DNA of 64,000 nucleotides, from positions 68,837-132,836 of the IMG/VR virus record IMGVR_UViG_3300002026_000001; one strand, 5' to 3'. The notes under the pieces are model-generated. The model was given only the letters and a program-made list of their open reading frames with translations. It was not told the origin of the DNA and ran no database searches. Positions 2,579 through 58,620 of this stretch are shown here, piece after piece. Numbering within the stretch: position 1 is the first letter of the stretch; each line of letters opens with the position of its first letter. This DNA comes from a virus. A program made the translations under genes and the position numbers.

Positions 2579-3136
2579 TTAACCGAAAAGAAACTCTTTG
2601 AACGCGTCTTCATACGTCTTTGTGTTGTTCTCGTTGCGAATCCCGTGGTTCATCCACTTAGTGAACTCGGCAACGTCACTCTTCGCATGGCGTGCACGGT
2701 ACCCGACGAACAGTAGTTGGGTTGGAACCTCATGGATTCCAGACTTCTTGAGGAATTCCATGCGTGCGCGACCTTCATGACCTTCAACAACTGCAAGACC
2801 ACCTGTCCCATCAACAAATTCGTCGATGTTTAGATACAGGCACGGACAACCAAACCCGTACCCATTGTCAACTTTGTCTTGCAAGTATGGAACGCGCTCT
2901 CCGACGTCTGCGTCAGGCTTTGCCAAATTCAGGTACGTGGCGGGTGACATCATAGTCATGCACCCTTTGTAAAGCACGTTTTGGTTGTCGGGCGTTGCAC
3001 CAAGACCACCAACGTTGTCGATGTAGATCGTGCCTGTCAAACGGTACGCTGACTCGGCAACAGCTAATGAAAAGGTCGGGAGCTTTGCAACCTGATCCGG
3101 GGTACGCTTCTTGTTACTAGATACTGAAATCAACAT
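2579..3136 (-). CDS. Putative ParB/Srx-fold protein
   Basis: VVEGHEGRARM resembles the ParB/Srx GxHR motif, preceded by a PCLYL beta strand. Confidence 0.4.
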   Translation of the reverse strand: MLISVSSNKKRTPDQVAKLPTFSLAVAESAYRLTGTIYIDNVGGLGATPDNQNVLYKGCMTMMSPATYLNLAKPDADVGERVPYLQDKVDNGYGFGCPCLYLNIDEFVDGTGGLAVVEGHEGRARMEFLKKSGIHEVPTQLLFVGYRARHAKSDVAEFTKWMNHGIRNENNTKTYEDAFKEFLFG

Positions 3137-3148
3137 AGTACAGTTCCT

Positions 3149-3787
3149 TTACAGCTTGTAGAATTTACCAGAGCAGACGATCCCGTCTGCTCCTTCCTTT
3201 GTTGCAACGGCTTCAGTGCGACCGTCGACAACTTTCACAAAGTTCCACAAAACGTCACGACCATCAATGTTGCTGTTCTTCTGAATACCGCCGTGGTAAG
3301 TTCCGGTCAGCTTTGAGATAAGAAGCTTTGCGGTGATCTTGGACGCTGACGTGCTGACTGTCCTTTTCCCATTAGACATTTTAACGCCTGTCTTTTGTAT
3401 GAATGCAATAGCTTCCTTTACCTCTTTTGCACCACCATACAAAGGTTTGGAGTCAGAATTCCCCATGAACTTTTTTACAAATTCAACTTCGTCAAACGGC
3501 CCCTTAACGGAGCAAGAGTTTTCCATCGAAAAGTCGACCTCAATCTCTTCTTTACTTCTCTGACCTAAATAGTCTACTGGAAGTCCGTCAACGACCAACA
3601 CCACGTGGGTTACTTCATATGGAATTGACCGGCTGAATTTCTCACCGTTAGTGTTGCTGAGAATGAAAAGTCGACCTGAAGGGAAAATAGTTTTCAAGGC
3701 AACTGCGTAGATTCCACACCCCTCGCTCATGTAATAGTGACTGGTGTTGTGGGTTGCCGACAAAGCAAGGCTAATAACGGTTTTCAT
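3149..3787 (-). CDS. Hypothetical protein
   Basis: 212-aa ORF; its start overlaps the ligase stop (ATGA). Confidence 0.6.
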   Translation of the reverse strand: MKTVISLALSATHNTSHYYMSEGCGIYAVALKTIFPSGRLFILSNTNGEKFSRSIPYEVTHVVLVVDGLPVDYLGQRSKEEIEVDFSMENSCSVKGPFDEVEFVKKFMGNSDSKPLYGGAKEVKEAIAFIQKTGVKMSNGKRTVSTSASKITAKLLISKLTGTYHGGIQKNSNIDGRDVLWNFVKVVDGRTEAVATKEGADGIVCSGKFYKL

Positions 3788-5793
3788 ATACCAAGTTCTT
3801 TGTTCAGTTGTTGGAGGCTGAGAATCTTGACCCCCTTTGCACGTGCAGCGTCCAATTTGCCGCTGCTGGCGTTGGGGTCTTTTGCGACCAACAATGTCGT
3901 TGTACCACTAACGCTGCCACCAACCTTACCGCCTTGTTCAGCAATTGCGGCCTCTGCTGCTGCGGAACGAACACCGGTAAACACAACGACCTGACCTGAC
4001 ATCTTGTTGCCGACAACTTTCGGTTTCACATCGGCCTTAAACGTGATAGGCAACGTCTGTAGGAACAGGAAACACTTAGTCAGGTTTGCGATAATCGGTG
4101 CTGCTGACTTCTCTTTGAAACCTGCGACGTCTTGCAACTGCGCTTCGATGCTAAGTGCAGTGTGCTTGATCGACATATCGAACAGCTTCGGACGTGCTTC
4201 TTTCAGTGAACGAAGTTTACGTTCACCAAGCAAAGGCCCGAGAATACCGGACCCCGCCATAACCTTGACCAAGTCTGCGTTGGTGCATGCCTTCTCGATG
4301 TTGCCTTGAATCTTTTCTGCTTTGCGCAACTGCCAACCCGGAAGGTTGATGTAGTCTTTCACGCGCAACTTGATGATCTTGCCAACCGTGTCGTATCCAG
4401 CGGCAAACAACTGCTGCACAACACCGAGGCCCATGTCATCAACCATCAGACCTTTCTGGAAGAAGTGCGTGATAGCTTTCACCTTCGTCGTGTCATTGCC
4501 GTGAACACCGCCGCCAGTCGAGGACTTGAGAACAAACTGCGTACCATTCTCATCCCACTCATAATCCCCAACCAGCTTCTTGTCAGGCAAAGACGCGTTT
4601 GCACTTGGCTTCACGACGCTTTGAATGTATGGGATAACTTCACCGCTACGAATGATTGCGACTGTCGAACCAACGTTGAGCTTGTTGTCGACGATGAACT
4701 TGGCGTTGTGTGCTGTTGCATGTGTGACTGTTACGCCAGCCAGCTTGACAGGTGCAACGGTGATGCGCGGAACAATGCGACCATGACGTGAGGGACGCCA
4801 TTCGATCAGCGTGACCTTGGTCTCAGCGTAGTTTCCTTCGCTCGGAGCTTTGAATGCAATCATCGACAACGGGTTGCGCTCTGTCAACTTGTACGGAACG
4901 TCTTGTGCAATGACGATCCCGTCAATCATGTGGTCGGCCTTCTCGCGTGCGCGAAGATATTTCAGAACCTGTTCCTCGTTGAGTGTCTTGGCGACGATGT
5001 GGTGAACGGTTTTGAAACCTTGGGCCTCTGCCCACTTGAGTGCGTCAGAGGGCTTCATGCGCTTGTGCAAAACGTCAAACACCAGCGGCTCTACTGAGCC
5101 TATTGCTTCGTGCATGCCGCGAGTCTTGTTGACGATCCCGCTAGTCAGATTTCGTGCATTCTTGTACTTGCCAGCCCACTTCTTTTCAAACTCGGACTTC
5201 GACATGATGATTTCAGCACGCACACCAGTCTCAGCACCAGTAGGTGCACGCTTTGGCAACTTCAAATGCTGGATCGCATGTGACCAATCCATCCCGTGAG
5301 TTGCGGTACCTCCCTTGTACAACTTGTCGAAAACTCCGTTGTGTGACAGAAGCTCCATCGACACACCGTCCAGCTTGTCACTGAGAATGTACGGGCCGGG
5401 GTGCTTTGCCGCCCACTTCGCTAGACTTCCGTCACCATAGTACTTCTTGTCCAACGACGGCATCAGGTACGGTAGCTCAACTTCAATCTGCTTGACACCG
5501 ACAGGCGAACGCGTTTGCGCAACCAACTTGCTTTCAGGTTGCGCTTCCTTCAACGCGGCCTCAAGAACATCGTACCGCGCATCGGTGATTTCCAGAAACT
5601 TCGTTGTTACTTTTTTCGGTGTATCAGGCAACTCAATGTCGCCACGGACAAGTTTACCAAACGCAACAATCTCAGCGACCAACGGAGTCAGCTTTTCAAC
5701 AGGGACTTTGAAAAACCTGTCCTTGTTGTAATACGTGTCCTTGGATACTTCGATCAATTTTGTAATCTGTGAAATGTCACGTTTGGTAAACAT
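3784..5793 (-). CDS. ligA: NAD-dependent DNA ligase
   Basis: Adenylation motif SDKLDG, DGIVI, AFK, OB-fold WRPSRHGRIVP/THATAHN/IIRSGEVIPYI, HhH region, and C-terminal BRCT (GQVVVFTG...SVSGTTTLLV...GKLDAARAKGVKI). Confidence 0.95.
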   Translation of the reverse strand: MFTKRDISQITKLIEVSKDTYYNKDRFFKVPVEKLTPLVAEIVAFGKLVRGDIELPDTPKKVTTKFLEITDARYDVLEAALKEAQPESKLVAQTRSPVGVKQIEVELPYLMPSLDKKYYGDGSLAKWAAKHPGPYILSDKLDGVSMELLSHNGVFDKLYKGGTATHGMDWSHAIQHLKLPKRAPTGAETGVRAEIIMSKSEFEKKWAGKYKNARNLTSGIVNKTRGMHEAIGSVEPLVFDVLHKRMKPSDALKWAEAQGFKTVHHIVAKTLNEEQVLKYLRAREKADHMIDGIVIAQDVPYKLTERNPLSMIAFKAPSEGNYAETKVTLIEWRPSRHGRIVPRITVAPVKLAGVTVTHATAHNAKFIVDNKLNVGSTVAIIRSGEVIPYIQSVVKPSANASLPDKKLVGDYEWDENGTQFVLKSSTGGGVHGNDTTKVKAITHFFQKGLMVDDMGLGVVQQLFAAGYDTVGKIIKLRVKDYINLPGWQLRKAEKIQGNIEKACTNADLVKVMAGSGILGPLLGERKLRSLKEARPKLFDMSIKHTALSIEAQLQDVAGFKEKSAAPIIANLTKCFLFLQTLPITFKADVKPKVVGNKMSGQVVVFTGVRSAAAEAAIAEQGGKVGGSVSGTTTLLVAKDPNASSGKLDAARAKGVKILSLQQLNKELGI

Positions 5794-33529: not shown

Positions 33530-33832
33530 TTATGATTTCGCGTCAAGCAAAATGAAATGCGGTTGATCGTCGATCCAAATATCAGGTCTGATCCCGTAGG
33601 ATTCAAGGAACGGAAGCTTTGCTTTTCGTTCAGTCGGGACAATGCGATGCACCAAGTCGGTCAGCCTATCGTCCATTTCTTGTACCTCTTCAAACGTACG
33701 CATTGTGGCGACCAAGACTTCATGACCTCTTTCCTGTGCCATCTTGACAACGGCCAACCAGAAGTCAGGGTCTTTTGTGTAGCAATTATCATAATCTAAG
33801 GCTATGAGCATCGAAGGCACCTTTGAAATCAC
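33530..33832 (-). CDS. Small HAD-superfamily phosphatase
   Basis: LIALDYDNCYT (DxD), VATMR, K, IWIDDQP. Confidence 0.75.
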   Translation of the reverse strand: MISKVPSMLIALDYDNCYTKDPDFWLAVVKMAQERGHEVLVATMRTFEEVQEMDDRLTDLVHRIVPTERKAKLPFLESYGIRPDIWIDDQPHFILLDAKS

Positions 33833-34790
33833 GTTTACGTACTGGGTTGGTTACATACTGCATCGCACACCCAATCTTAACAACGGCCACTACAAAGTCA
33901 TAGCCGTGAGAAGTGCAAAACTTTGTAGCGGCTTTGAATTTTTCTAGACCGCCGTCAGAAAGAGCGAGCCGGATCGTGTAGTCACTCTTGACCTCAACCA
34001 ATTGCCTTGTCCTGTCAATAAAGCGAACACCCAAGTCTGGATAGTACATGTGTTCAAGACCGTCACGACCTATATAAGGTATGGTGGGAATCTGGTCCCC
34101 AAAAAACAATTTGGAAACTTTAGGGTCCGAATCAAAAGCAGAGATAACGATTGGCTCATACCCCTGACATTCAATGACGTTTCCGTTCTTCAGTCTAACT
34201 TCTTTCTTCAAGTACACGTCCCACGTGGCGTATAAGTCCGGGTTTTGAATTGGCCACCGGGTCCCGTATTTAGACATTGACGTCTCCACGCACTTGGCAA
34301 GCCATTCAGATTTACTAAGCTTGTGGTGTTTTTTGAACTCGTCCGATTTGAAAAAGTTGTCTGCCCCAAATTCGCGCAAACAGGTTTTTCTTTTTCTCTC
34401 CTTAACTTCAACGCTCTGAGAAATGTTTGCGACGCCGTACTTCTTAATGCTCGCTTCAGACCTTCTAGCGTTTGTCAATTCGGCCTTGTTGGAGCATTGA
34501 CGAGAGCAAAACCTTTGATAGCCAAACTTCAAGCTACCGGTTGGGGTTATTTTTGTTGGCGTCTTGCATTCTTCACACCGTGGGTCGTAGTCTGGAAATA
34601 AGAATTGGACGGCGCGCTCTTTTGAGATTTGTCCAGACAACGCCTCAGACAACGCCGCGAAATCGTCCGGGTAGTTCGCGCGCAACCAAGGTCTGAAAAG
34701 TTGAACGTTGTTGACCTTCTCAAACTCACGCACAACCTTTCTACTATTATTGCTTCTTTCACGCCACTTGCGACCGAGTTTCTTAATCAT
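33789..34790 (-). CDS. Putative homing endonuclease (PD-(D/E)XK C-terminus, KYG-N repeats)
   Basis: CEEC/CSRQC zinc motif, KKYGVANISQS-type repeats, QGYEP, YYPD...VEVKS. Confidence 0.7.
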   Translation of the reverse strand: MIKKLGRKWRERSNNSRKVVREFEKVNNVQLFRPWLRANYPDDFAALSEALSGQISKERAVQFLFPDYDPRCEECKTPTKITPTGSLKFGYQRFCSRQCSNKAELTNARRSEASIKKYGVANISQSVEVKERKRKTCLREFGADNFFKSDEFKKHHKLSKSEWLAKCVETSMSKYGTRWPIQNPDLYATWDVYLKKEVRLKNGNVIECQGYEPIVISAFDSDPKVSKLFFGDQIPTIPYIGRDGLEHMYYPDLGVRFIDRTRQLVEVKSDYTIRLALSDGGLEKFKAATKFCTSHGYDFVVAVVKIGCAMQYVTNPVRKRDFKGAFDAHSLRL

Positions 34791-34850
34791 GGGTTGCTCT
34801 CGATTATGACCAAGCCCTTAAATTAGTGTTATCGTAATCCAAAGCCAGAA

Positions 34851-53490: not shown

Positions 53491-53775
53491 TTGAAAAGCC
53501 TCCGGTTGAAAAAGCCAAGTAGAGAAAAAATCACAACGTCCAAAGTTGGCGCGTTGGGCTTTTACCCTTTAGGAAGGTGGAATATTAGCGGGTAGCGATT
53601 ATCCTCGTACCTCCCCGTACCTCCATTTTACAGGAAATCGACCCGGCTGTCAACCCCTTTTTTCAAAGCCCGGTCACAGGCCAAAATAGGCCGATTTTAG
53701 ACGTTGTGTAATTTTGAGGATTTCAGCACAACGGAAAACAGGCGTCAAAAATCGACGCCTGTCTAGGGTTACACG

Positions 53776-55140
53776 TTACTCATTATCGTCATCGCCAATT
53801 TCAGGTGCGTCTGCTTCATCTTCTTTCGCCTTATCAGCTTTGCGGTTGCGGCTGTCCAACTCTTCCTGATTGTACATGTCGAGTCCGACACCTGATGCCA
53901 TTTGGGCAAAACACTTATCACGTACTTGAACAGGTTTCATCCCGGCCTTCGCACAAATCAACTTGATGGTCGCACGGTCGCCAAGAATCAAGCGTTTGAA
54001 GTCCAGCCAACTTATGACGTGTGATGCCTCGTTGCCTTTCAGCTTCAAGAGCATCTTGTTGCGCTTGCCAGTCATCTGACATGTCGACTTGAGATACATA
54101 AACGTGTCGAAGACCGGGTCAAAGCCCTGAGCGTCATTCTTCGCATCAGTGATCCAAAGACGCAACCACGATTCGAGATACGGACGACTGAGTTTGTTCT
54201 TGTGGCCGCGAACGTGAATGTAACGATAGTTGTCGACACCGCCCTTGTGCGTAATTGACGGTTCTTCTTCGATCTGGCCCTTGATGCCTTTCACGACTTC
54301 GCCAATGTCCTCTCTGACCGATGACAGTGCGCGACTTGACCACTTCATGCGAACGTCAGAATACAGCTTGAGGGCTTCACCGCAAGGTTCGTACTCGGGT
54401 GAACCAAACTGCACCATAGGCTTCAACCGCAGTTGGTTGATACCAAGAATGGCAATACGCTTGCCACGCATTTTTCCCTTAACCCGTTTGAGTTGGTCAG
54501 AGAACATACGTGCTTGTGTGGCAATGGCATTGTTTGGATCGTCTACGTCTTGCTTCTCAGGCAGCATGGCCGGGTAGCTGTCAACCAAGACGAGTGCTTG
54601 CATTGTTCCATCAGGAGCCGGAACCCTGTAGAGGCCGGTCTTGCGGAAATAATTGACGTCGTAATTCTTACCGACCAAGGCTTGATTTGCCTTATGCACT
54701 TTGCCGTCAGCGGTCTTTGACTCGTACAGGTAATACCAGTTCTCACCGATCTTTTTCTTGTCCGGCAGCATGCGCTGTAGACGGGCCAGATAGTCAAAGA
54801 ACTTCTCGGCAACTGCTTCAGACTTGTAACGAACACGCGGCGGAACCAACCACTTGCCGGACTTTTCATCACGTATGCCGAAGATGTTTTTGGCGCTACC
54901 CTTTGCGCCCATGTTCCGCATGATGTTGTCCAGATAGTCGGCAGACGCTGAATTGTGCGTCACGACACCGTTTGCAATAAAGCTTTCGGGAAGGTCGGAA
55001 CCAACGCCCGGCACTGTTATGTCGTAGACGTCCTGTACAGCAGCCGCTTCAACTTTCACCACAGTGGAGGTAGTCAGCCCCCACTTCAGAAGGAACGCCC
55101 GTGTTTCTTCGGGACTTTGTGTAACTTGCATGTGTCGCAT
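53776..55140 (-). CDS. recA: RecA/UvsX-like recombinase C-terminal part, fused to split-intein IntC (~60-63 aa)
   Basis: VQDVYDITV...SFIANGVVTHN|S (Asn at 54954-52), then SASADY, Walker B LVLVDSYPAM, QARMFS, INQLR, GEALKLYSDVR, KNKL. Confidence 0.88.
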   Translation of the reverse strand: MRHMQVTQSPEETRAFLLKWGLTTSTVVKVEAAAVQDVYDITVPGVGSDLPESFIANGVVTHNSASADYLDNIMRNMGAKGSAKNIFGIRDEKSGKWLVPPRVRYKSEAVAEKFFDYLARLQRMLPDKKKIGENWYYLYESKTADGKVHKANQALVGKNYDVNYFRKTGLYRVPAPDGTMQALVLVDSYPAMLPEKQDVDDPNNAIATQARMFSDQLKRVKGKMRGKRIAILGINQLRLKPMVQFGSPEYEPCGEALKLYSDVRMKWSSRALSSVREDIGEVVKGIKGQIEEEPSITHKGGVDNYRYIHVRGHKNKLSRPYLESWLRLWITDAKNDAQGFDPVFDTFMYLKSTCQMTGKRNKMLLKLKGNEASHVISWLDFKRLILGDRATIKLICAKAGMKPVQVRDKCFAQMASGVGLDMYNQEELDSRNRKADKAKEDEADAPEIGDDDNE

Positions 55141-55187
55141 CCTTTACTAATTTGACAGCATATTTTGATTACAAAGAGGTGTTTGAA

Positions 55188-56141
55188 ATGTTAGACCTAA
55201 CCGTGCAGGAAAAGAGAAAGCTAAAAGCTGTTGTTGCAAACACCAAGCACGCGCCTGACAAATTGCGTGGTGCCTTGATAGCAAAGATGCCGGACCTGTA
55301 CTACACAAGCAAAGAGGTCGGCGAGCAGAATGGCGTGAAATACTCAAAGCTGCTGTATGACGCTTTGTATGGACGCGGGTCTTGTGCCACCTGCGGAAAA
55401 GAGCCAGTGTTCATAAGTATGTTTCAAGGGTACAAGAGGTTTTGCTCAAACTACTGTCTAGGTACAAGCCCCGAAATACAGGAGCAGAAAAAAGCGAAGT
55501 GCAGAGCTACCACAGGTTTCGATTACCCTATGCAAAGCAAGCGCGTCAGAACCAAGTCTAGAAAAACTGTGCAAAAGCACTACGGTGTCGACAACGTAAG
55601 TCAGGCGAAAGAAGTCCAAGACGCAAAAATCGCAACGTTTTACCAACGGTACGGGTATAGCAATTCGTCCAAGCACCCAGACATGAAACGCCTTATAGGT
55701 CGCCGCATTGGCAGCAGCCTAGCCAAGAAGAAAATCGTTAACGGGCAGGGAAAACAGTACGTGCTGCAAGGGTATGAACCCCAAGCCTTGAAATACATGA
55801 AACGCTTTTTTAAGTACCGAGACATCCACGGGCAATGCAGTGGAAAGGTGCCGAATTTTGACTACTACTTTGACGGCCGTCAACGCGTATACTTTCCAGA
55901 CTTTTTCATTGACGGTGAAAACTGCATTGTAGAAGTGAAATCTATATACACATTCACCAGAACATCGTCAGTGTTCAGAATGAACAAGGCTAAGGCAAAA
56001 GCCGTTGCCGCTGCCGGGTATGAGTTCAAACTACTGGTCATGCACGAGAACGGCAGCAGAATCAAACCACCACCCTCGTGGACACTAATGAGATACTCAG
56101 AGATTAAAGACTGGGTCGAACAACAAGGCGGTCCCCGATAA
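55188..56141 (+). CDS. Free-standing endonuclease nested antisense within the fractured recA
   Basis: CATC/CSNYC zinc motif, HYGVDNVSQ/RYGYSNSSK repeats, QGYEP, YFPDF...VEVKS; SD AGAGG before ATG 55188 (track start 55152). Confidence 0.8.
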   Translation: MLDLTVQEKRKLKAVVANTKHAPDKLRGALIAKMPDLYYTSKEVGEQNGVKYSKLLYDALYGRGSCATCGKEPVFISMFQGYKRFCSNYCLGTSPEIQEQKKAKCRATTGFDYPMQSKRVRTKSRKTVQKHYGVDNVSQAKEVQDAKIATFYQRYGYSNSSKHPDMKRLIGRRIGSSLAKKKIVNGQGKQYVLQGYEPQALKYMKRFFKYRDIHGQCSGKVPNFDYYFDGRQRVYFPDFFIDGENCIVEVKSIYTFTRTSSVFRMNKAKAKAVAAAGYEFKLLVMHENGSRIKPPPSWTLMRYSEIKDWVEQQGGPR

Positions 56142-57120
56142 CCAAGTCCTCAATGTACTTCCAAACGAGCAGTTCGTCAGAAGTACAAACAAGCTCCTTG
56201 TGCTTATACCCTTCAAGAGTCGAACCGTTTTCAAGATCAATGTGCACGCAGGGCTTTGGGCCTTTGTACATAATTGCCGTGACTTGCTGCGCGCCACATG
56301 GCGTTTCGACCGTTACCTGCATCTTGCTGGTGTCAACTGCTTCGTAGGGTTTCAGGTTCAGGCCAACGAACAAGTCACCAAGATGTTGTTTGACACCGTT
56401 GACGGTAACTTGTGCGTCATACGTCAAACAACCTTCAAAATCGAAGTACGTCAGGATCGGGACATTGCTGTTCAACGCAGCAGACATGATCGTCACTGCG
56501 CCGGTCGTTTTACACGTTTGCTCTTGACCGAAGTTTGTATACCAACCAGCAGTAATACCACCGCCCAAAAGGATGTCCAGCATCAGCATGCCAGTTGATA
56601 GGCGTGCCTCGCTTGGGTCCATTGAGGATTCGGACAGCCCAACCTCACGTTCGATAACGTCAAGAACGTCGTCAAGGTGAGAATATGGATTGAACGCACT
56701 GGACGTTGCTTTCGCATCGTCAATGGCTTCTTTCTTCGTGCGCTTCTTGGGCGGAGCTTCTTCAACCTCGACTTCAGTTTTTGCACGACGCTTCTTTGGT
56801 GCTTCCTCGACGACCTTGGCGCGACGTTTCGGAGCGGGTGCTTCTTCGACGACTTTTGCACGACGTCTTGGTGCCGGAGCTTCTTCAACAGCCTTTGCCC
56901 GACGTTTCGGAGCGGGTGCTTCCTCAACCTTTTTCGTACGGCGTGAAGGTACTTCTTCGACAGCTTTTGTACGACGTTTTGGTGCTGGTTCCGGTTCTGC
57001 CCTAGCGCGATGTTTTGGTGCTGGTTCCGGTTCGGCCTTACGGGTTCGACGAGCCGGAGCTTCTTCAACCGGACGTCGTGATGAACGTTGTTGTTGCCTA
57101 GCCATTGCATCTATCCTCAA
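56104..57120 (-). CDS. recA: RecA/UvsX-like recombinase N-terminal part (with a ~130-aa basic repeat extension), fused to split-intein IntN (108 aa)
   Basis: LSTGMLMLDILLGGG, Walker A GQEQTCKTT, YFDFEG|CLTYDAQV (Cys231 at 56430), block B GSTLEGYKHK, and the IntN-type end WKYIEDLVIGDRLVV. Confidence 0.88.
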   Translation of the reverse strand: MRIDAMARQQQRSSRRPVEEAPARRTRKAEPEPAPKHRARAEPEPAPKRRTKAVEEVPSRRTKKVEEAPAPKRRAKAVEEAPAPRRRAKVVEEAPAPKRRAKVVEEAPKKRRAKTEVEVEEAPPKKRTKKEAIDDAKATSSAFNPYSHLDDVLDVIEREVGLSESSMDPSEARLSTGMLMLDILLGGGITAGWYTNFGQEQTCKTTGAVTIMSAALNSNVPILTYFDFEGCLTYDAQVTVNGVKQHLGDLFVGLNLKPYEAVDTSKMQVTVETPCGAQQVTAIMYKGPKPCVHIDLENGSTLEGYKHKELVCTSDELLVWKYIEDLVIGDRLVVRPSL

Positions 57121-57171
57121 AATGATTTGAGGGTTTGACGTGTTGGGTCAAACCCTCTGAGATACTACGAA

Positions 57172-58620
57172 TTAGAACGGGATGTCATCGTCGTCATCGT
57201 CATCATCGTTGCTGCGACGTGCTTTCTTGGCAGGTGCTTTCTTGGCAGGTGCTTTTGCCGGTGGCTTCTTTGCACCACGCTTCGGCGGAGGCGGGGTGTC
57301 ATCGTCGTCATCGTCGTCGTCACCATCTTCGTCGTCACCATCTTCGTCGTCATCGTCGTCATCGTCGTCAGACGAGCGACCACGTTTTGCCGGTGCTTTC
57401 TTCGCAGGTGCTTTCTTTGCACCACGCTTCGGCGGTGGGGTGTCGTCATCTTCATCATCATCGTCACCGTCACCATCATCATCGTCACCGTCATCGTCGT
57501 CATCGTCATCATCATCAGACGCGCGACCACGTTTTGCCGGTGCTTTCTTCGAGCCACGCTTCGGCGGTGGGGTGTCGTCGTCGTCACCGTCGTCGTCACC
57601 GTCGTCATCATCGCCTAGACCATCATCGTCATCATCGTCATCATCGTCATCATCGTCATCATCGTCATCCGACGGGCGACCACGCTTGGCAGGTGCTTTC
57701 TTGGCGGCTGGCTTTTTCTTCCCACGCGGAGTGTCATCATCATCGTCACCGTCATCGTCGTCGTCACCATCATCGTCATCGTCATCGTCAACGAAGCTGG
57801 TCTTTTTCTTGGCGGCTGGCTTTTTCTTACCACCCTTGCCGAGCGCGTCATCATCGCCGTCGCCGTCGTCACCACCAAACTCTTCGCTGCCGACAATTTG
57901 CATGCGGCCAAGTTCTTTCTTGGCTTCAGCATAACTTTCAAGGCCCATCTGAGTCAGCAGAGCCTCGGTGAATTCATACGTCAGGTACGACAATTCTTCT
58001 TCGGTCAGCGGGGTCTTCTCAGCCATGTTGACCTGATACTTTTCCGGCCCCTTGGCGTTTTCATCGTACTTGATGTTGAGGTCAACACCAAAGCGTACGT
58101 GATTGACGTCGTACTTCGCGCCCTTCTTGAGAACACCCTTGATCTTGACGTTGTGCTTGTTCAGGTCTTTGAGTTCCTGAACCTTGCGCATCAGCGTAGG
58201 TGTCATACGCATTGCGCGAACCGGCGTCCACGACTCGCTCGTGGGGTCTTTGAAGCCGCTGGCTTTTTCTTCCTTGGTGATACGAATCTTGCTTGGTGCA
58301 TCGTCCTGCAAAGAGCGAACGATAACGTTTGCCAAGTAGCTGACGCTGTCTTGGGCCTCGATGTCATCGTATGGGCATTTCGCGCCTTTGCGAACGCCTT
58401 CGGTCACCGGGTCAAACGACAAGCAGAGCTTCGGGATGCGAATCTCACGCTTCGTCTTCGTCGTTATGATGTTGATCCAGTGAGTCTTGTAACTGAAAAT
58501 GTCGTTGGGAAGAATGCGAATCTGCACCCACTTGTTGTTCGGAAGCTTAACGCAATCCAACAAGTCTTCCAGACGTGCGTGTTCTCCACGCGTTGATGGT
58601 TTGGCATCACCTAACTTCAT
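57172..58620 (-). CDS. ssb: Single-stranded DNA-binding protein with a very long acidic/basic tail
   Basis: gp32-like WVQIRILP..HW..C..CP..Y(L)ANV core; tail of poly-Asp and PAKKAP repeats ending DDDIPF (the bacterial SSB C-tip). Neighbours recA. Confidence 0.7.
   Translation of the reverse strand: MKLGDAKPSTRGEHARLEDLLDCVKLPNNKWVQIRILPNDIFSYKTHWINIITTKTKREIRIPKLCLSFDPVTEGVRKGAKCPYDDIEAQDSVSYLANVIVRSLQDDAPSKIRITKEEKASGFKDPTSESWTPVRAMRMTPTLMRKVQELKDLNKHNVKIKGVLKKGAKYDVNHVRFGVDLNIKYDENAKGPEKYQVNMAEKTPLTEEELSYLTYEFTEALLTQMGLESYAEAKKELGRMQIVGSEEFGGDDGDGDDDALGKGGKKKPAAKKKTSFVDDDDDDDGDDDDDGDDDDDTPRGKKKPAAKKAPAKRGRPSDDDDDDDDDDDDDDDDGLGDDDDGDDDGDDDDTPPPKRGSKKAPAKRGRASDDDDDDDDDGDDDDGDGDDDDEDDDTPPPKRGAKKAPAKKAPAKRGRSSDDDDDDDDEDGDDEDGDDDDDDDDTPPPPKRGAKKPPAKAPAKKAPAKKARRSNDDDDDDDDIPF

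Follow-up and report, generated by a model that had tools for sequence, protein, structure and literature searches.

A jumbo-phage recA gene very likely fractured by a split intein, with a reversed DUF7487 nuclease gene between the halves

We analyzed a stretch of 64,000 nucleotides, hereafter the window, which covers positions 68,837 to 132,836 of the IMG/VR virus record IMGVR_UViG_3300002026_000001 and holds the recombinase gene recA in two pieces. Our analysis revealed that the pieces are separated by a cassette of 1479 bp (54952-56430), made up of the N-terminal half of an intein (IntN), a reversed nuclease gene and the C-terminal half of the intein (IntC). We consider it very likely that a split intein has fractured recA at this locus, which belongs to an uncultured jumbo phage; this reading includes trans-splicing of the two products and homing by the nuclease, both of which are inferred. 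The locus consists of three open reading frames (ORFs), and the ORF list and its translations placed all three where a preliminary description of this DNA had put them. The recA-N plus IntN ORF (56104-57120, minus strand) encodes 338 residues from a TTG, with a product of 333 residues (P0001) according to the gene caller. The IntC plus recA-C ORF (53776-55140, minus strand) likely starts at Met4 (55131) and yields P0044, of 451 residues. The probable starts of the two recA pieces, Met6 (57105) and Met4, both show Shine-Dalgarno spacing and agree with the gene-caller products. Between them lies the free-standing nuclease gene (55188-56141, plus strand; 317 residues, family DUF7487), which most likely starts at the ATG at 55188, preceded by AAGAGG, and not at the TTG at 55152. 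The nuclease and IntN ORFs converge and, as had been noted earlier, overlap at their 3' ends, by 38 nt (56104-56141, both strands).

The two recA pieces and the intein halves

The N-extein (56431-57105, minus strand; Met6 to Gly230) has a tail of about 130 residues rich in K, R, P and E, followed by a RecA core ending in DFEG. The frame then runs on from ...ILTYFDFEG230 into CLTYDAQV...EGYKH...GDRLVVRPSL and a stop. This piece matched the UvsX-like family PHROG 97 (2e-14), which also matched the C piece. E. coli RecA chains aligned to residues 166-219 of the N piece in HMMER, and the A3 profile matched RecA structures at 2e-6; Pfam assigned no family to the N piece. The C piece was recognized by the Pfam RecA model with 55.8 bits (cut-off 27) and matched RecA structures at 1e-10. 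Its extein, with the stop codon (53776-54951, minus strand), starts at Ser+1 (54949-54951) as SASADYLDNIM... and contains Walker B, LVLVDS, which aligns to RecA structures, and the L2 region INQLRLKPMVQFGSPEYEP. Walker A is present as the variant GQEQTCKT, in which the Lys and Thr are kept and the second Gly is a Cys; this Cys is kept in the close clade, with G, A or S in other clades. The N-terminal tail itself (56730-57105, minus strand; about 130 residues) is built of APAPKRRAK-like repeats, and relatives keep its composition and not its sequence.

The position of the break was established by comparison with relatives that carry recA in one piece. In L002, another IMG/VR jumbo phage, the homologous recA (66% identical, a value that also holds for the C piece from S210 on) is a single uninterrupted gene in a syntenic setting, with SSB-like and sigma-like neighbours common to both phages. 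In BLASTP against L002, the window's N piece stops at G209 and its C piece starts at S210, so that no residue is lost or gained at the junction. A second relative, L005, reads FEGSASADYLENIM / MDFEGSASADYLENIM across the junction, which is nearly exactly the predicted spliced sequence. The IntN/IntC segment is missing from L002, L005 and L007, where the exteins are contiguous and in register. The junction DFEG/SASADY proposed earlier thus agrees with the register of one-piece homologues and with the G209/S210 boundary of L002. By the HMMER alignment, DFEG corresponds to DAEH of E. coli RecA, with E229 at the position of its catalytic Glu96. The match of DFEG with DAEH places the insert one residue past the equivalent of the catalytic Glu; together with the RecA profiles, this alignment bears out the earlier proposal of a RecA host interrupted right after that residue.

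IntN comprises 108 residues (56107-56430, minus strand), from Cys1 in CLTYDAQV (codon 56428-56430) to ...GDRLVVRPSL, with the stop at 56104-56106. IntC comprises 60 residues from Met4 (54952-55131, minus strand), or 63 from the first ATG at 55140, and shows block F as VYDITV and block G as FIANGVVTHN. Three positions do not vary among 16 homologues (32-64% identical): Cys1, which is Cys231 and directly follows DFEG, and the block-B Gly and His. Block B reads EGYKH, and all 16 sequences follow the pattern G-[YFNS]-x-H, in which the Thr of the usual TxxH is absent; the departure from TxxH remarked on earlier for GYKH is therefore shared by all these homologues, with G-x-x-H invariant. At the other end, the IntC terminus GVVTHN/S was recognized by TIGR01443 (intein_Cterm) with 27 bits (cut-off 15.6), and the same ending is found in L004, L013 and L018. 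The N-piece profile matched the Mxe GyrA intein at residues 2-107 (E 9e-4). [quoted passage not shown] Taken together, the conserved residues, TIGR01443, the profiles and the intein-free alleles support the earlier assignment of a split intein with 108-residue IntN and approximately 60-residue IntC in separate ORFs, and they suggest that IntN and IntC would trans-splice the RecA pieces.

The two halves were also docked in silico. The IntN-IntC model scored 0.82, and the best of three controls scored 0.00; this mark is attained by 51 of 78 solved complexes and by 2 of 108 mismatched pairs. The docking runs shared at least 94% of their contacts, with a partner predicted local distance difference test (pLDDT) score of at least 79. 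Because split-intein complexes have already been solved, this result may mirror likeness to known complexes. Hence, IntN and IntC are predicted to associate, in a model that expresses likeness to solved split inteins and is not proof of binding.

The nuclease and the alleles of the insertion site

The earlier assignment of a PD-(D/E)XK nuclease to the opposite strand held up at 55188-56141. The protein was identified as Pfam DUF7487 (PF24308) with 107.8 bits (cut-off 27; 1e-30), and its residues E197, P237-D238 and E249-V-K251 form the E...PD...EVK motif, which is invariant in 13 homologues. Its N-terminal half matched PHROG 3339, "homing endonuclease" (1e-14), and shows a Cys cluster and helical YGV-x-N-x-SQ repeats; this half is presumably a DNA-binding module. 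Since a fold from the single sequence reached a pLDDT of 38, it was replaced by an alignment-based model, with a pLDDT of 74 overall and of 81-96 per 10-residue block across residues 181-310. In VIA-align, the best fold match to the nuclease domain was TnsA (1t0f_A; Z 8.8, root-mean-square deviation (rmsd) 2.8, 109 residues aligned), followed by Vsr (Z 7.0, rmsd 3.2, 99 residues), I-Bth0305I (3r3p; Z 5.7, rmsd 3.9, 84 residues) and I-Ssp6803I (Z 4.5, rmsd 3.9, 96 residues), all of which share the restriction-endonuclease fold. Foldseek against the PDB found no match at E <= 0.001, the weak matches all being PD-(D/E)xK nucleases, and a sequence search of the nuclease against the PDB gave nothing meaningful. 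Pfam TnsA-like_N matched weakly. The sequence similarity to TnsA is marginal; unlike TnsA, the nuclease has no transposition context, and its Cys cluster and helical repeats are unrelated to that protein.

The position of the nuclease gene in the cassette, the presence/absence polymorphism described below and the co-occurrence with intein halves argue that the DUF7487 protein would serve as the homing endonuclease of the cassette. This co-occurrence is direct in three recA loci; for P0005/P0012 and P0008/P0017 it is indirect, in that the IntN pieces and the nucleases come from contigs of equal length (7120 and 4406), which suggests common contigs.

The record from which the window comes measures 132.8 kb, has an estimated completeness of 50% and ends with the window as its second half; the minus strand of the window carries 60 of 67 long ORFs. 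A megablast against 50,697 phage records gave no match, the relatives being seen at the protein level only, and a contig scan of 185,579 prokaryote genomes found no relatives. The RecA relatives are the jumbo phages NCTB, phiRSL1, PaBG, Dickeya phage JA29 and Erwinia phages Yoloswag and Alexandra, at 40-45% identity. We surveyed the site in 45 IMG/VR loci of this phage RecA family, with the orientation of the nuclease at recA taken from the window, its close wastewater relative (X4, described below), L004 and L013. As summarized here, the site was empty in 40 of the 45 loci, which read DxEG/S, and L055, which reads DPEG/A, was likewise free of an intein there. Three loci were occupied: L012 (the L004 locus), L013 and L018. 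In both L004 and L013 the intein is split and its halves flank a reversed DUF7487 gene, which overlaps the IntN 3' end by 47 nt in L004 and by 27 nt in L013. L018, in contrast to these, carries a contiguous mini-intein of 167 residues at the same site, without a nuclease. This intein is colinear with the combined IntN and IntC of each of the three split loci, and the alignment places their break in the loop that separates block B/N4 from block F. The search for this site and for contiguous or empty alleles that had been suggested earlier thus recovered empty, contiguous-intein and fractured states in related phages.

The insertion itself is best seen by comparing L004 and L007, phages that are 90-93% identical. 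L004 shows a clean insertion of 1829 bp, from the Cys1 codon to the Asn codon. The Ser-Ala-Ser codons that follow the site carry synonymous differences between L004 (7137-7145, TCGGCAAGT) and L007 (895-903, TCAGCGAGC), a change that may reflect a co-conversion tract or a change of the target site.

We further found IntN-like sequence in 23 clusters among 1.84 billion representative proteins. RecA-N pieces that stop just past block B/N4 accounted for all eight short cluster matches inspected and for eight closer homologues. The recurrence of such pieces indicates that the fractured recA is old and widespread in environmental phages. A word search with IntC returned the window's own protein as its sole match.

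Other inserts were observed in the RecA genes of this family. In L048 (approximately 4501-5025), the remaining one of the 45 surveyed loci, an intein-like insert lies within the Walker A/P-loop (GGEQSCK/CLVGDSLV) and would be a third intein site in the family. A large contiguous second insert is found elsewhere in RecA in L004 (7667-8762), L008, L013 (2553-5276), L015, L026, L037 and L043-L047. The one in L004 lies in the L2 region (MFG/C...HN/SPEYEP), where an LAGLIDADG-like motif, ILGDG, can be seen by eye. L008 is gp239 of Erwinia phage Yoloswag, with 836 residues; GenBank labels the Erwinia phage proteins only as putative RecA or hypothetical protein.

Proposed mechanism and competing explanations

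We propose that the recA pieces would be translated separately, that IntN and IntC would come together as a Hint fold, divided at the loop where endonucleases are canonically inserted, and that protein trans-splicing would join ...DFEG to SASADY... to give a RecA/UvsX-type recombinase of about 616 residues, in the register of related one-piece proteins. During co-infection, the DUF7487 nuclease would cut intein-less recA alleles, and repair would copy the whole cassette in. The nuclease would be expressed from its own promoter-like motif, and recA-C by read-through. Several observations weigh against this scheme. The usual Thr of block B is replaced (GYKH), and the Pfam intein models were not significant on either half, with a sub-threshold Intein_splicing match on IntC and no match on IntN. 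The nuclease could have another role, since the window's other DUF7487 gene is free-standing and lies between genes. In addition, a weak sigma-70-like match at 55883-55855, inside the nuclease antisense, is the sole alternative to read-through seen for recA-C.

Among the other explanations, the one that survives best, and an improbable one nonetheless, holds that the intein halves keep the RecA pieces together non-covalently, as a two-chain recombinase without splicing. The docking model speaks for association and not for chemistry, and block B lacks its usual Thr, both of which agree with such an arrangement. Two-piece genes of this kind have precedents: an SbcD-like gene is split by a nuclease gene without any intein (Dassa et al. 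2009, PMC2677866), and the ligase genes described below are split by reversed DUF7487 genes with no intein detected, which indicates that phages of this kind do have enzymes made of two unspliced pieces. However, Cys1, the block-B His, the penultimate His, the terminal Asn and Ser+1 are kept in homologues down to about 30% identity, and the ATPase core would not easily accommodate about 170 residues of unremoved intein one residue from the catalytic Glu. Both points favor splicing over a non-covalent complex.

Less probable still is a decaying recA, inactivated by a nuclease gene that landed in the intein and left non-functional pieces. Since the record is about 50% complete, another recombinase gene could sit elsewhere in the genome, as this explanation would allow. 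Against decay, the three ORFs are intact in the window, in L004 and in L013, and N pieces that end at the same point are kept in many diverged lineages. Comparison with the relative of about 95% identity (X4), from a 2024 wastewater metagenome independent of the source of the window, pointed in the same direction: among the 40 of 61 differences that were listed, the ratio of synonymous to non-synonymous changes was 14/5 in the nuclease, 10/3 in IntN and 4/4 in IntC. Synonymous differences thus outnumber non-synonymous ones in IntN and the nuclease, and the changes in IntC are mostly in its non-conserved N-terminal extension.

The earlier worry about misassembly was met by independent assemblies. 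For the run that is probably the source (X1, a microbial mat, 2014), Logan contigs span IntC, the nuclease and the overlap and leave 56273-57200 uncovered. The contigs of the 2024 wastewater metagenome bridge both internal junctions: 54923-55503 takes in the end of the extein, IntC and part of the nuclease, and 55481-56459 leads from the nuclease across IntN to beyond Cys1. An assembly artefact, or joining at the RNA level by a nuclease-bearing intron, for which the homing-endonuclease genes known in recA group I introns of Bacillus and of phage 0305phi8-36 would be a model, is largely refuted by these bridges from independent assemblies and an independent study, by a layout common to three phage lineages, by insert ends that are the intein residues Cys1 and Asn/Ser in frame, and by Rfam, which found no intron or other RNA family in 53500-57400.

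Expression signals, precedents and reversed genes elsewhere

The nuclease gene is preceded by a promoter-like motif, CTAATTT (55147-55153, plus strand), 35 nt upstream of its ATG. With 8 copies found in the window and 6.2 expected, the motif is not enriched by raw count, and the signal lies in position and strand. Of the 8 copies, seven are on the same strand as the gene that follows and precede its ATG, which has a Shine-Dalgarno sequence, by about 25-40 nt; aCTAATTT sites are found at 1887, 13520, 23518, 28405, 34820, 46966 (minus strand) and 55147 (plus strand). Upstream of genes, CTAATT was the top enriched hexamer, with 6 observed against 0.34 expected. CTAATTT is therefore a probable promoter element of the phage, belonging to a single temporal class. 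The motif that had been assigned to the nuclease is present, and because of its placement before ATGs and the enrichment of CTAATT, including both DUF7487 genes, an own promoter for the nuclease is a reasonable reading. The second DUF7487 gene (33789-34790, minus strand; 333 residues, 78.7 bits) lies free between genes on the main coding strand, with CTAATTT at 34820-34826. Possible equivalents of the upstream motif are CTAATCA in L004 and GTAATTT in L013.

On the minus strand between the recA pieces, including the nuclease gene, no CTAATTT-like motif was found, and the spacer from the nuclease start to the IntC start is about 50 nt. These two features suggest that transcription most likely reaches recA-C by reading through the nuclease gene in the antisense direction. 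Regulation of recA or of the nuclease by this antisense transcription, which had been raised earlier, is pure conjecture.

Fractured genes with split inteins were described from marine phage metagenomes by Dassa et al. 2009 (PMC2677866), with the hosts gp41-1 to -8, NrdJ-1, NrdA-2, IMPDH-1 and DnaE-2. That study places all three ORFs of a locus on the same strand, describes the nucleases as GIY-YIG or Vsr-like and lists no recA host. The present locus resembles those genes in that a split intein interrupts a conserved DNA-metabolism gene and its halves enclose a free-standing endonuclease gene, in the break between blocks B/N4 and F, and in the order and orientation kept by the pieces. It differs in three respects: the nuclease is on the opposite strand, as also in L004 and L013, and overlaps the IntN 3' end; the host is recA; and the nuclease is a DUF7487 protein with an E...PD...ExK motif, to which Vsr and I-Bth0305I are structural neighbours only. 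Pseudomonas jumbo phage MIJ3 (PMC6892783) offers a similar case in a cultured jumbo phage, a fractured replication gene with a free-standing endonuclease between split-intein halves, but there the host is PolB, the nuclease is HNH and the intein belongs to another lineage. I-Bth0305I (PMC3239194), a Vsr-like/EDxHD homing endonuclease from a group I intron in recA of Bacillus phage 0305phi8-36, is likewise a restriction-fold homing endonuclease aimed at a phage recA, and in structure its catalytic domain is a neighbour of the window nuclease. It is, however, intron-borne, with another active-site motif and from another sequence family.

Bacterial RecA inteins generally carry LAGLIDADG endonucleases and are located at other RecA sites. 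Novikova et al. 2016 (PMC4760082) recorded 56 RecA inteins, contiguous and from mycobacteria and other bacteria; RecA is a favoured intein host, but those inteins are one-piece and the present one is split. Our full-text literature search found no natural split intein in RecA/UvsX, no DUF7487, no intein site after DxEG and no reversed nuclease in a fractured gene, the one remark on orientation being that of Dassa et al., and a reading of Pinto et al. 2020 aimed at this point found no RecA split intein. The earlier statement that a recA host with an antisense nuclease is not among the described cases fits the literature searched, because Dassa et al. report one strand and no recA host. The reversed layout is not unique to this locus, since it is also found, with a nuclease of the same family, in a PolA gene and in two ligase genes. 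What is new here is the recA host, the DUF7487 nuclease and the reversed, overlapping nuclease gene; no new principle is involved.

Under this reading, RecA, the central recombinase and the enzyme on which homing itself depends, would join the genes fractured by split inteins, and the uncharacterised Pfam family DUF7487 would gain a likely role as a homing endonuclease. A reversed and overlapping nuclease gene would call for a separate nuclease promoter and for read-through or internal initiation for the downstream half of the host gene. Related phages show one site empty, filled by a contiguous mini-intein or fractured, and these states provide material on the origin of split inteins. In addition, this diverse split-intein family, with at least 20 clusters at 50% identity, Cys1/Ser+1, a block B other than TxxH and a split at the canonical site, may offer candidate orthogonal trans-splicing pairs.

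The reversed DUF7487 genes in other host genes were found as follows. In L061 (1-5029) a family-A DNA polymerase (PolA) gene is fractured by a split intein, with IntN ...GTQAHKV... and IntC ...GVFSHN/S, and the reversed DUF7487 gene (2812-4296, 145 bits) overlaps the end of IntN by about 60 nt. An LAGLIDADG intein lies further downstream in L061. In L057 (1582-5191) and L060 (1810-4615) an NAD-dependent DNA ligase is split by a reversed DUF7487 gene between its OB fold and its C-terminal Zn-finger/BRCT part, and Pfam detected no intein halves in the flanking ligase pieces. All six gene-splitting DUF7487 copies inspected are reversed (three in recA, one in PolA, two in NAD-dependent ligase). 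One could speculate that "antisense fractured genes" form a class of their own in large phages, not described so far and defined by DUF7487 nucleases, and that selection and not accident keeps the nuclease gene reversed there, a proposal we regard as rather doubtful. If it were true, convergent and fully overlapping transcription would hold back the nuclease during transcription of the host gene; alternatively, the assembly of the recombinase would be timed through the supply of its downstream half.

Upstream of recA-N, a terminator-like hairpin (57129-57157, minus strand) separates the recA gene from the SSB-like gene and is preceded by CTAATTC at 57169. The SSB-like protein (57172-58620, minus strand) carries long acidic and basic block repeats and ends in DDDIPF; its relatives keep this composition and not the sequence.

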